Positions 39,835 through 43,911 of a stretch of 64,000 nucleotides of DNA are shown piece by piece (the stretch's first letter is position 1; the number at the start of each line of letters is the position of its first letter). The notes beneath the pieces are model-generated. The model ran no database searches and was not told where the DNA came from. It saw nothing but the letters and a program-made list of their open reading frames with translations. The DNA is from an uncultured Alphaproteobacteria bacterium (GTDB lineage: Bacteria > Pseudomonadota > Alphaproteobacteria > Rhodobacterales > Rhodobacteraceae): the NCBI GenBank assembly GCA_963779765.1, contig CAVZZP010000002.1:904247-968246 (forward strand), read 5' to 3'. A program made the translations under genes and the position numbers.

Positions 39835-40233
39835 CTAGCGGCTGACGGAGCCGAGAACCGGGCGGGGGTTCAGGGCACCCGAGGCGCCGCAGGCCAGGTC
39901 GACGCTTTCGCCGCCATAGACCTCGACCCTCTGCCAGGCCTCGCCACCCGAGGTGCGGGCGCTGACGATCCAGTCGCCGTCCTCGAGAGCGATGACCAGC
40001 GGGCGGCCGACCTGGCAGCGCCCGACCTCGCGGCCTTCGACGAGGATGACGGGCGATGTGGCGGCCTGCGAGAAGAACTCGACGTCCGAGGGCCGCGTTA
40101 TGGTCAGCGTGTTCCGGGCCAGGGCCGAGAGTTGCGCGGGCGTCGGGTCCGCGCCCGTGGGGCCGACCTGGGCGGTGCCGATGAAGCAGCCCGGCAGGGC
40201 GAGGAGAAGCGGGAGGGTCAGGAGGCGTCGCAT
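39835..40233 (-). CDS. Hypothetical lipoprotein
   Basis: MRRLLTLPLLLALPGC lipobox; small beta-rich domain with two further Cys. Confidence 0.7.
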   Translation of the reverse strand: MRRLLTLPLLLALPGCFIGTAQVGPTGADPTPAQLSALARNTLTITRPSDVEFFSQAATSPVILVEGREVGRCQVGRPLVIALEDGDWIVSARTSGGEAWQRVEVYGGESVDLACGASGALNPRPVLGSVSR

Positions 40234-40308
40234 GAATTTAGGGTAGGACGGTTCGCCCGGTCGGACAAGGCGCCCCGGGATCAAAGCCTCGTGGTTTCCG
40301 CCCGTCTC

Positions 40309-40605
40309 TCAGATCGAGAAGACGACCTCGCCCGAGCGCGGCTCGGTCACGCCGAGGTCGCCGCCCAGATCCTCGAGCGTCTCGCGGAAGCTGTCGAGCG
40401 TCGCGATCATCTTCGGCCGGGCGGCGGACAGCGCGTCCATGCTCTCCCACTCGCCGACGACGAGATAGTCGCGGTCGCCGGTCTTCACGATGCGAAAGCT
40501 CTTCATGCCCTCGAAGTCGTCGCGCCGCCGCGCCTCGTGCGCCGCGAGGAACGCACCCTCCTGCCCCGCCTTCACCTTCATGCGGACGATGTTCATGGCT
40601 GTCAT
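40309..40605 (-). CDS. Dimeric alpha-beta barrel (ABM-like) protein
   Basis: MNIVRMKVKAG...VGEWES...RPKMIATLD; GGAGG RBS. Confidence 0.75.
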   Translation of the reverse strand: MTAMNIVRMKVKAGQEGAFLAAHEARRRDDFEGMKSFRIVKTGDRDYLVVGEWESMDALSAARPKMIATLDSFRETLEDLGGDLGVTEPRSGEVVFSI

Positions 40606-40666
40606 GTTCGGGTCCTCCCCCAAGGTTTCCCGGCGGGAAGCGTAGCATGGATCGGGCGCAAATTTC

Positions 40667-41467
40667 CTAAAGTATCACATCCGCTGAAACATCATATCCA
40701 GCCGCTTTCATCTCTTTCACGACTTCAAACTGCCACATGCCGCGATCATCAAGATCTGTGTATAGGACGCCAAGGATATCAGACGGCTCCTCTAGAATCT
40801 TCCTTAAGGACACAAACTCTATCGCGTCTCGAAACTTTCCAACAAAATAACCTAGCTCAAGTATCACATTCTGTCTCGCGCGAGGCATTAGTCTCGCATC
40901 CTCCAACTTCTCAGCACTCTTTCCACCTATGTCATCTGCTGTCATCAGAATAATTGCAAATCCGACCTGTGAGCTTTGCTCGAACTTTTCAATAATTGTT
41001 CTACCCTTGTTCGGCTGCTCTCTAAGAATTATTGCCTGAAGGCCCAATTTTTCAATCAGCCTAGCTAACTTCGCAATTCTCACTTCGTCATGCCCATGAA
41101 CAATAAATATCTGATCGCCCACGCCGAACTGCCCTAGTGCGGCCGCCTCATGAACAAAGGAAGAATCCTTCTTGCTTGGCAAGAGTTCCACAAGTCTGTT
41201 GAGTATTCCCATCGCTCTGTCGCGATTTGCTCGCCTCAACTCCCTAGGTCTTCCAACATAAAACGTGTAAGAATCCTCCCATTATTGGCAAAATAACTTC
41301 CAGCACCTGACGCGTAGATTGCTTCCAGCGTATCCCTAGTTGTTTCGTACCACCAAGTCAGGAGCATCCGCGTTTTCAGGGCAGTCCTGAAGAGTAGAAA
41401 TGCGTTCAAGTATGCGAGCGCGAGCTTCCTCTGGCGAAACCAAGAGATCTGAACAATCAAAATCCAT
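40667..41467 (-). CDS. AT-rich TIR-domain protein (Cap12/Pycsar-type TIR, PF10137-like) with about 4 indels as sequenced
   Basis: IFIVHGHDE, IILREQPNKGRTIIEKFE, FAIILMTADD, RARQNVILELGYF, EPSDILGV. Reconstructed start ATG 41467 MDFDCSDLLVSPEEARARILERI. Confidence 0.8.
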
Positions 41468-41471
41468 CCAA

Positions 41472-42370
41472 TCACCCCCTCAAACTCCCGCCACTCCCCC
41501 TTGCTCATGCCGGAGGTCTCCTGCGTGACCTCCTCACCCTTCAGCATCCGCCGCAGGCAATCAAGCGCCTTGCCCCGACAGCGTTGCCCCGCCCAGCCGG
41601 TAATCCTCGAAGGCCCCGTAGGCGTAGGGCACCCAGTCCTTCACCAGCCGGCAGATCTCCTCGGCGTAGACGCGGATCTCGTATTGCGCGTGGGCGTCGG
41701 CGCGCAGGCGCAGGAAATGGAAGAGGTTGTGGAGGTCCACCTTCCAGTACCATTGCGTGTAGATGTTGGCGGGCAGGTTCATCCGCGCCAGTTCCCGCGC
41801 GAGGCCCTGCTGGCCCTCTTGCCCGATCATCTCCTCGTAGTGGTCATAGGTCCGCGCCGCGTCGCCCTTGAGGTACTCCAGCACCCGCGCCGCCTCCTCG
41901 CCCGACAGCGCCTCGCCCCGGCCCTGGTTGTTGACGGTGGATTGCGCGGCCAGATCCTCGGGCCGGGGGATGTAGAACTCGCGGTCGAGGATCGAATAGC
42001 GGGCGGAGTATTCGTTCACGTTGGCGGTGCGGTGGCGGATCCACTGGCGGGCGACGAAGACGGGGAGCTTCACGTGCAGCTTCACCTCGCACATCTCGAA
42101 GGGGGTCGAGTGCCAGTGCCGCATCAGATAGCGGATCAGCCCCTCGTCGTTCGACACGGCCTTGGTGCCCCGGCCATAGGACACCCGCGCGGCCTGGGTG
42201 ATCGCGGCGTCGTCGCCCATGTAGTCGATGACGCGGACGAAGCCGTGATCCAGCACCGGGTAGGCGGTGTAGAGATGCGCCTCCATCCCCTCCGACACGG
42301 CGCGCAGCGTGGGGCGGCTTTGCGTGCGCAGGGCGTCGATTTCGGCCTGTTGCTCGGGGGTCAGGGGCAT
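41472..42370 (-). CDS. thyX: FAD-dependent thymidylate synthase; frameshift near 41575, exact stop uncertain
   Basis: [38 protein letters not shown]; C-terminus [28 protein letters not shown] in the next frame. Confidence 0.95.
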
Positions 42371-42402
42371 GGGGGTCTCCGTTCGGTCGATGTCGCAGGA
42401 CC

Positions 42403-42449
42403 GCACCTTATCTTGGGGGAGGCCTTACGTGAACCACAATATGCCGGTG
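42403..42449. promoter_or_regulatory. Tandem NrdR-like boxes upstream of thyX
   Basis: gcaCCTTATCTTGggg (42403-18) and ccaCAATATGCCGgtg (42434-49), each 8/10 to core CWANATNTWG, 31 bp apart. Confidence 0.62.
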
Positions 42450-42555
42450 CGTTCGTTCCGCGTCCGGGATCAATTCCGCCCATCCCCGCCGCCCGCTGTT
42501 GACATCGCCAGCGGGGCGCGGTGTCTGGTCTGACAGGCACGGGAAGGATGGTTCG

Positions 42556-43911
42556 ATGCGCGCGTTCATGGGTATTCTGGCAGCGGTGATGTTCTGCGCA
42601 ACGGGCGTTCCGGCGCAGGAAGCGACCCGCTCGGCCAGCGTCGCCGAAGTGCGCCTCGCCGCTCGCGCCGCGGCGCTTCAGGGTGATTTCCGGGCGGCGG
42701 ATGCTCTTTCCTCAACCCTTCTTGCGCGCGATCCGAACGATGCCGAGGCCCTTCTGATCCGCGCCGTGGTGGCCCGCGCCGCGGGACAGCCCGCCGCGTC
42801 GGTCGAGGCCGCGACGAAAGCCTACGGACTTCTCGACGAGGACGGCAAGCGCTTCGACGCCGCGATGCTGGCCGCCGAGGGCCATGCCCGACAGGAACAG
42901 TTCACGCGCTCGCAACTCTGGCTGCGCCGGGCCGATCAGGTCGCGCCGAATCCGCAGGCGGAGCAGCTCGTTCAACGCACCTACGGCCAGGTCGCCGCGC
43001 GCAATCCCCTGTCGGTGCAGCTGTCCTTCTCTCTCCAGCCGTCGAACAACGTGAACAACGGGGCCGAGACCACGGTGATCGAGATCGGCGGCCTGCCCTT
43101 CTCTCTCGACGACAGCGGCCGGCAGCTTGGCGGCTATGAGGCGTCGACCGGGGTATCGCTGTCCTTTCGCCTGGCCGAGGACAGGACGCACCGGACCGAT
43201 GTCCTGGGCGAGTTATATTTCCGCAAGGTCTGGCTCGATTCCGACGCGAAGGCCGAAGCGCCGGATGTCGAGGGGTCGGACTTCGACTATGGCGTCGCCA
43301 TCATCGGCCTGCGCGAGACGCGCCTTCTCTGGCCGGACCTCGGACCGACGCAACTGACCGGCCTCCTGGGACAAAGCTGGTATGGTGGCGACGAGCAGGC
43401 TCGCTGGATCGAACTTCAGGGCGCGCAATTGTTCAAGCGGTCCGACACGCTGGCCTTTCGTCTGGGCGCTACGGTCCGTGACGAGACGCGCATCGGAGAC
43501 GCGATCAACGACTCGCTTTCACTCGGGTTGTCGGGCGACGTGATCTTCGCCGGGGACGAAGGCCGCACGACCTCCTTCGGGGCGACGATCAAGAGCTACA
43601 ACTCCGATTCCGCGACGATCGACGGCATGGCCTACGGGTTGAAGGCCAGCCACAGCTTCGGCACCATCGGCTCTGTCCAGCCCTCGATCCGCGCCGCCAT
43701 CGAGACGCGCGATTTCGAGAAATGGAGTTCGACGCCGGGCGGCCGTCGCGACGACAGCCTGTCGCTCGGCCTCAATGTCGTCTTCCCCGAGGTCAGCTAC
43801 TACGGCTTCCTGCCGCAGCTTTCCCTGAACGCGCGTCGCGTCTGGTCGGACGTCGGCATCTATGATCGCAATCAGTTTTCCGTGGGCTTCACGGCCGTCT
43901 CGCGCTTTTAG
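42556..43911 (+). CDS. TPR + beta-barrel outer-membrane protein (Slam/DUF560-like)
   Basis: Signal peptide, TPR-like helices, PSNNVNNG, alternating beta strands, terminal Phe (VSRF). Confidence 0.7.
   Translation: MRAFMGILAAVMFCATGVPAQEATRSASVAEVRLAARAAALQGDFRAADALSSTLLARDPNDAEALLIRAVVARAAGQPAASVEAATKAYGLLDEDGKRFDAAMLAAEGHARQEQFTRSQLWLRRADQVAPNPQAEQLVQRTYGQVAARNPLSVQLSFSLQPSNNVNNGAETTVIEIGGLPFSLDDSGRQLGGYEASTGVSLSFRLAEDRTHRTDVLGELYFRKVWLDSDAKAEAPDVEGSDFDYGVAIIGLRETRLLWPDLGPTQLTGLLGQSWYGGDEQARWIELQGAQLFKRSDTLAFRLGATVRDETRIGDAINDSLSLGLSGDVIFAGDEGRTTSFGATIKSYNSDSATIDGMAYGLKASHSFGTIGSVQPSIRAAIETRDFEKWSSTPGGRRDDSLSLGLNVVFPEVSYYGFLPQLSLNARRVWSDVGIYDRNQFSVGFTAVSRF

Follow-up and report, generated by a model that had tools for sequence, protein, structure and literature searches.

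Our analysis suggests that in Rhodobacteraceae the promoter of thyX, the gene for the flavin-dependent thymidylate synthase, carries a conserved, paired NrdR-type operator, and that the TIR-domain gene behind thyX in the genome studied here is promoterless cargo at the thyX stop codon, which would be coupled to the operator by the position of its slot. This combination is the best explanation we have for the locus, and we hold it with moderate confidence. Its proposed link to defence comes from a gene architecture that recurs across the family.

The window, i.e. the whole stretch of 64,000 nucleotides that was analysed (G000:C2:904247-968246, with G000 the window genome), belongs to a marine Silicimonas species, and the sister genome is that of Silicimonas algicola DSM 103371 (G001). 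The family is named in the GTDB sense; the NCBI taxonomy places the species in the Paracoccaceae. The window assembly is 86% complete and comprises 4 contigs. The features on which the argument turns are as follows (window coordinates):

40309..40623, minus strand: ABM-domain gene, the first conserved gene past the slot, 43 nt beyond the TIR stop.
40648..41468, no strand assigned: low-GC insert between thyX and the ABM-domain gene (GC 0.44-0.50, flanks 0.65-0.70).
40667..41466, minus strand: cargo gene of the PDC-S35 family; helical N-terminal domain followed by a TIR domain of the CAP12/Pycsar type (PF10137, 3e-31).
41470..42370, minus strand: thyX, flavin-dependent thymidylate synthase (Pfam Thy1, 4.6e-56).
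42403..42418, minus strand: proximal NrdR-type box, CCCCAAGATAAGGTGC in thyX sense and GCACCTTATCTTGGGG on the plus strand.
42419..42433, minus strand: linker of 15 bp, holding the putative -35 hexamer TTCACG (42428-42433).
42434..42449, minus strand: distal NrdR-type box, CACCGGCATATTGTGG in thyX sense and CCACAATATGCCGGTG on the plus strand.

The start codon of thyX is the minus-strand ATG at 42370, and alignments with homologues begin at residue 1. As no thyA was found in the window genome (86% complete), thyX is probably its only thymidylate synthase. The product of the gene divergent from thyX (42499-43911, plus strand) is a secreted protein that has a TPR match below threshold and possibly an outer-membrane part. 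Rfam searches of 40000-43000 returned no riboswitch or other known RNA.

According to the initial annotation, no terminator is evident between thyX and the TIR gene. The actual situation is stronger than this claim. The two genes lie on the same strand with no gap, and the TIR start codon at 41466 overlaps the 3' end of thyX, which leaves no intergenic DNA and thus no room for either a terminator or a promoter. No terminator-like site was found at the junction, nor between the TIR stop and the ABM-domain gene. The cargo ATG is preceded by GAGGGGG within the last thyX codons, and the TIR gene is perhaps translationally coupled to thyX. A promoter inside the thyX coding region is conceivable, and the search of the thyX 3' part returned no promoter-like site. 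Because there is no room for a promoter of its own, the TIR gene is most likely transcribed from the thyX promoter, and it would then inherit any NrdR control of thyX.

What had been called a TIR cassette is one single low-GC gene. Its 190-aa TIR open reading frame matches the PADLOC family PDC-S35 (5.9e-60) over profile positions 78-260 of 264 only. When the upstream DNA is read in three frames, the N-terminal part is recovered and matches intact homologues of 266-267 aa piecewise, which, together with the profile match, accounts for the full length of the family and includes the conserved glutamate. This residue (E205) is invariant in the alignment. The gene contains two frameshifts, near 41350-41360 and 41275-41281, and has no intact frame in the assembly. 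In an AlphaFold model (pLDDT 85), the closest intact homologue has an N-terminal domain of about 100 residues, predicted with confidence, and a TIR domain, and the best fold match of the latter is the TIR domain of TIR-STING (9lmq). PDC-S35 is one of 145 defence-candidate families (bioRxiv 10.1101/2024.01.29.577857), with thousands of homologues across phyla.

A third frameshift affects thyX itself. The ThyX proteins of relatives have about 301 aa and end in the same conserved tail of 16 residues as the window protein. In the window, the thyX frame is broken at 41561 by a 1-nt indel relative to G001 in the G-run at 41573-41576, the tail is found in the following frame, and the junction contains no stop in the thyX frame. 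A further open reading frame (41236-41547), implied between thyX and the TIR gene by the initial map, is rejected as a gene, because this indel shifts the conserved ThyX tail and the start of the frame is that displaced tail. The G5 run is also present in relatives with intact genes, and its length therefore lends no support to restoring the thyX stop by deletion of one G.

The frameshifts bear on the strongest of the alternatives, namely that the TIR gene is an inactivated remnant, or is driven by an unseen internal promoter, so that the operator has no defence consequence in this strain. We consider this unlikely. It would account for the missing thyX stop at the junction and for three 1-nt frameshifts (one in the thyX tail, two in the TIR gene) within 330 nt (window 41250-41580), a higher density than in the syntenic DNA next to it, where 5.1 kb contain seven indel sites relative to G001, four of them single-base. 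Because of this clustering, the cargo may be dead in the window genome. However, two of the three frameshifts lie in G-runs, and the second ribonucleotide reductase (RNR) gene of this incomplete assembly is also broken, which fits sequencing error; moreover, the lack of a promoter-like site in the thyX 3' part speaks against the internal promoter. The second RNR gene (G000:C1:732301-735668) is spread over several frames, contains in-frame TGA codons and is either a pseudogene or an assembly error.

Turning to the promoter, two NrdR-like boxes had been described 33-79 nt upstream of the thyX ATG, at a distance of 31 bp from start to start, and both are found exactly there. NrdR sites consist of two 16-bp boxes and a linker of 15-16 bp (PMC13584703, PMC12051234), and the thyX pair, with two 16-bp boxes and a 15-bp linker, follows this canonical spacing. 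Conserved positions of an NrdR box are C4, A6, A8, T9, T11 and G13, of which C4 and G13 are essential and A6 and T11 important, and at least 63% AT is required between C4 and G13 (PMC13584703). The distal thyX box retains C4, A8, T9, T11 and G13 and has G in place of A6, and the proximal box retains C4, A6, A8, T9 and G13 and has A in place of T11 and G at position 12. This amounts to 5/6 conserved positions per box, and to 9/16 and 10/16 matches to the consensus acaCwAtATaTwGtgt. Neither box has lost the essential C4 or G13, and the AT content between these two positions (5/8 and 6/8) barely passes the published limit. Each box has lost one of A6 and T11; mutation of A6/T11 in both boxes lowers the affinity 4- to 20-fold (PMC13584703). 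We infer TTCACG and TAAGGT as the promoter hexamers of thyX, the former assigned on account of its 17-bp spacing to the latter. The proximal box would then overlap the -10 hexamer TAAGGT (42405-42410), and the distal box would end just 5' of the -35 hexamer. The gene downstream of the pair is thyX and not an RNR operon, and NrdR is encoded and intact in the window genome.

Judged by the window genome alone, the box pair exceeds chance only moderately. With position weight matrices built solely from the nrdJ boxes of relatives, the thyX boxes obtain weak scores of 2.6 and 2.9 bits, and their sum ranks 13th among 7.5 million genome positions, with nrdJ ranking 1st. A scan by the literature rule retrieves about 14 tandems genome-wide, the thyX and nrdR promoters included, against about 8.6 expected, and 10/12 or more key positions are reached by 1% of control windows. 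The thyX pair has 10/12 key positions with C4 and G13 intact, and the same is true of the nrdJ operator of the window genome; the candidate pair that the rule scan places upstream of nrdR (G000:C2:444290-444337) likewise reaches 10/12, counted by hand. The nrdJ-only matrices give too low a score to plausible sites, among them the candidate operators upstream of nrdR in relatives (-10 to +4.5 bits), and were therefore not taken as sole criterion. Single near-perfect boxes (6/6 key positions) occur at G000:C2:1522211, C2:357747, C2:1478983 and C4:11375, upstream of genes that were read by eye as gyrB, recJ, ccrM and guaB from their first 50 residues. Binding at these boxes is doubtful because they have no partner at 31-32 bp, and the four genes were not counted as regulon members.

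The evidence from the single genome is thus modest, and the comparative evidence is strong. In 56 of the thyX promoters from 80 named Rhodobacteraceae genomes, at least 10/12 key positions are found together with a 15-16-bp linker, compared with 4 of 400 control windows, so that the conservation in relatives on which the NrdR proposal depends is indeed there. A stricter literature rule is satisfied by 18 of the 80, against 0.002 expected per window. In most promoters of the 10/12 survey, the distal box starts 74-87 nt 5' of the thyX ATG, and the distance is fixed relative to thyX, not relative to the divergent gene. The distal element conserved in 63 relatives, nnACnnnATATnGnGG, aligns with the distal box of the window, and the proximal consensus of the relatives is CCnCnAGATATAGTnn; A6 is missing from the distal thyX box family-wide.

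A second line of evidence links the thyX boxes to other candidate NrdR targets. The nrdJ promoters of 15 genomes of the same family carry a tandem of ATACGTCAnnTTGTGn and, 31-32 bp downstream (start to start), CCACnAGATnTAGTGG, and the thyX promoters of the genomes surveyed for nrdJ share a footprint of CATATnGCGG followed about 31 bp on by AGATATAGT. When this footprint, built from 11 genera with the window genome left out, is compared with the nrdJ tandem, the two match only in the predicted register, with a score of 16.6; the null maximum is 4.9 +/- 1.2, and none of 5000 column permutations reaches the observed score. Both boxes add to the match, the spacer does not. The nrdR promoters of relatives (L080-L103) have a comparable pair with GCGG at its end, after which come TATAGT and a perfect DnaA box, TGTGGATAA. 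If this arrangement is real, nrdR transcription would be tied to both NrdR and DnaA.

These comparisons speak against the next alternative, which we judge to be rather unlikely, and according to which the boxes are mere promoter elements (a -10 and an upstream element) that resemble NrdR boxes, or decayed remnants that are no longer bound in Silicimonas. The low matrix scores, the loss of T11 and the G at position 12 in the proximal box, the change of A6 to G in the distal box, the roughly 14 equally good tandems genome-wide against about 8.6 expected, and the frequency of 10/12 matches in control windows would all fit this view, and part of the conservation could be promoter conservation, since the proximal motif doubles as -10. 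However, the distal element is conserved although it lies upstream of any sensible -35, and in the two Silicimonas species both boxes are identical except for the first base of the distal box, whereas the spacer and the upstream DNA have diverged. Tateyamaria has the same AGATAAGGTG variant, and the nrdR-upstream pair of the window genome scores no better than the thyX pair. As far as sequence comparison can tell, the boxes of the thyX promoter behave as a conserved paired NrdR-type operator across Rhodobacteraceae. In this family thyX is very probably a member of the NrdR regulon, and the Silicimonas site is a weaker variant of the family's thyX operator.

The position behind thyX is a recurrent slot. 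At the identical place in S. algicola lies another low-GC gene, of 467 aa and without a family match, and synteny resumes at the ABM-domain gene. If an insert is defined as DNA at least 10 GC points below baseline directly after the thyX stop, 34 of the 76 usable loci from the 80-genome set have one. The first cargo open reading frame is co-oriented with thyX in 32 of 33 cases, and 17 cargo genes start at -3 to +16 nt from the thyX stop, several of them with overlapping stop and start codons. In a survey of 20 genera, RES-domain genes, a Panacea-domain gene followed by a 233-aa open reading frame, HicAB, a PIN_12 gene and several unknowns were found in the slot. Among 33 cargo proteins, six match PADLOC defence or candidate families (E<=1e-5), namely AbiP2 (5e-161), AbiJ (twice), PDC-S35 (twice, with other N-terminal domains) and PDC-M28C, and a seventh has a marginal restriction-enzyme match. 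Pfam domains among the cargo include PIN_12 and an HSDR_N-type domain, in addition to the RES, PIN, HicAB and Panacea domains, and about 20 of the 33 proteins have no match. An enrichment of defence genes downstream of thyX had been put forward as a check, and the inserts, the PADLOC matches and the toxin-antitoxin cargo together bear it out. Most of the single-gene cargo (L060:160-1563 in S. algicola, L062:159-1253, L064:4504-5964 and about 20 open reading frames in L105-L184) has neither a Pfam nor a PADLOC family and may represent defence or toxin genes not described so far; unknown proteins of 467, 364 and 486 aa are among this cargo. Given the unrelated cargo in the slot of other genomes, we reject the idea that the TIR-like enzyme is functionally linked to thymidylate metabolism.

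In genomes with an insert, strong GC-rich hairpins are found 3' of the cargo and not 3' of thyX. At the junctions we saw no integrase and no att-like, attC-like or direct repeats; the right flanks vary, and GC-rich hairpin repeats occur in some of them. GC-rich palindromic repeats such as GCCCGGCATCGC(T/C)GGGCAGCGCC and GTAGGGTGCG...CGCACC(C) recur just 3' of the cargo or of thyX (after cargo at L109, L117, L121 and L173; also at L110, L136 and L176), and may act as terminators or recombination substrates. Searches for the thyX-TIR junction in phages and plasmids gave thyX homologues only. Rhodobacter phage RcPescado (L202, gene 53) and 23 related Rhodobacter capsulatus phages carry thyX followed by a DNA methylase. 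The phage thyX has just 76-77% nucleotide identity with the host-type gene, and cargo delivery by recombination with phage thyX was set aside on this ground.

The initial annotation had taken the arrangement further and proposed that a defence effector borrows a nucleotide-sensing promoter instead of having its own sensor. Of this interpretation, the conserved operator, the junction with no room for a promoter or terminator and the slot enrichment stand, and the idea of an adaptive borrowing of a sensor is weakened. That effectors sit behind an NrdR-controlled thyX promoter in order to be derepressed and armed by a phage-driven fall in dNTPs seems to us quite improbable: dozens of genomes do combine a conserved operator with co-oriented, abutting cargo that includes abortive-infection genes (AbiP2, AbiJ, PDC-S35), but low-GC cargo is absent after nrdJ (about 0/18) and nrdR (0/15) in the family, its presence does not track box quality (26/63 vs 8/17), some of it is ordinary toxin-antitoxin (HicAB; the Panacea-domain antitoxin and its neighbour), as in G007, where the pair is preceded by TTGACA-like repeats, thyX is needed in every growing cell, so that cargo would not be off before infection, and phages of the group carry their own thyX, which makes the sign of the dNTP change on infection uncertain. 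The absence of cargo after nrdJ and nrdR implies that the slot belongs to thyX in particular and is not a general feature of NrdR-controlled operons. That the TIR gene lacks a sensor of its own is also unlikely for a two-domain family with a conserved, confidently modelled N-terminal domain and such a wide distribution. A related idea, in which the thyX stop is an operon-embedded cassette site that keeps promoterless Abi and toxin genes behind the NrdR operator, so that a drop in dATP raises thymidylate synthesis and effector dosage together, would imply a nucleotide-pool-gated tier of immunity and turn the unannotated part of the cargo (roughly 60%) into a list of new single-gene defences; we regard it as a long shot.

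Together, these data favour a model in which operator and cargo meet at thyX by way of the slot. Given a proximal box that overlaps the putative -10 and a distal box immediately 5' of the putative -35, a NrdR tetramer loaded with ATP and dATP would bind when dATP is plentiful and lower thyX transcription, and would release the promoter when dATP falls. NrdR is known to bind DNA as a tetramer that carries both ATP and dATP, whereas the form with ATP alone does not bind (PMC12051234; PMC9110341). The PDC-S35 TIR gene would be a horizontally acquired single-gene cargo placed exactly at the thyX stop codon. Such cargo may land, or be retained, in a permissive slot inside the operon and would inherit the regulation of thyX as a by-product. 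This is the most economical reading, and the coupling is best read as a consequence of slot position, not as a dedicated phage sensor.

If the model is confirmed, thyX would provide a case of a canonical NrdR box pair at a gene other than an RNR, with conservation at the level of a bacterial family, and dATP/ATP sensing by NrdR would extend from dNTP reduction to dTMP synthesis. Control of thyX by NrdR would make physiological sense in organisms that have no thymidylate synthase besides ThyX. The thyX stop would be a compact, integrase-free slot in an essential operon for Abi-type, toxin-antitoxin and unknown genes, and would provide a “guilt by slot” handle on new single-gene defences in marine Rhodobacteraceae, as well as a natural test of whether the dosage of a defence gene is tied to the nucleotide pool. 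In the literature searched, we found no paper linking NrdR with thyX and no precedent for a cargo slot at the thyX stop codon.

A 2025 preprint reports paired NrdR boxes at RNR operons only for E. coli and P. aeruginosa, describes single boxes at topA in Pseudomonas and dnaA in Shewanella, and suspects most other putative boxes of being false positives (bioRxiv 10.1101/2025.03.28.645925). The thyX site resembles the RNR operators (E. coli nrdAB/nrdHIEF/nrdDG, S. coelicolor nrdRJ/nrdAB) in its two partly palindromic 16-bp boxes with a 15-bp linker, the C4 and G13 residues, the AT-rich core, the placement over a promoter (here a putative one) and the presence of the repressor gene in the genome. 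It differs in that the regulated gene would be thyX, and in that A6 is lacking from the distal box throughout the family and T11 from the proximal box in the window genome. Like the single boxes at topA and dnaA, it is a candidate extension of the NrdR regulon to genes of DNA metabolism; unlike them, it has a canonical pair that is conserved in most of 80 species.

As for the cargo, the TIR domain belongs to the same PF10137 subfamily as those of CAP12 (TIR-STING) and Pycsar TIR effectors, with the conserved glutamate in NVILELGYF, but the gene has no cyclase partner, and its product has neither a STING nor a cyclic-nucleotide-binding domain; instead, it has an unrelated N-terminal domain of about 100 aa. 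The slot, in turn, is reminiscent of the core defence hotspots of P. aeruginosa (cDHS, PMC10250203), E. coli (PMC10121019) and P2/P4 (PMC9122126), which likewise combine a fixed site, flanked by conserved genes, with varied low-GC defence and toxin-antitoxin cargo. Unlike these hotspots, the thyX slot has no visible integrase or att-like repeat and usually holds a single gene of about 0.6-1.4 kb that is almost always co-oriented, abuts the stop codon of an essential metabolic gene and probably lies within the transcription unit of that gene.
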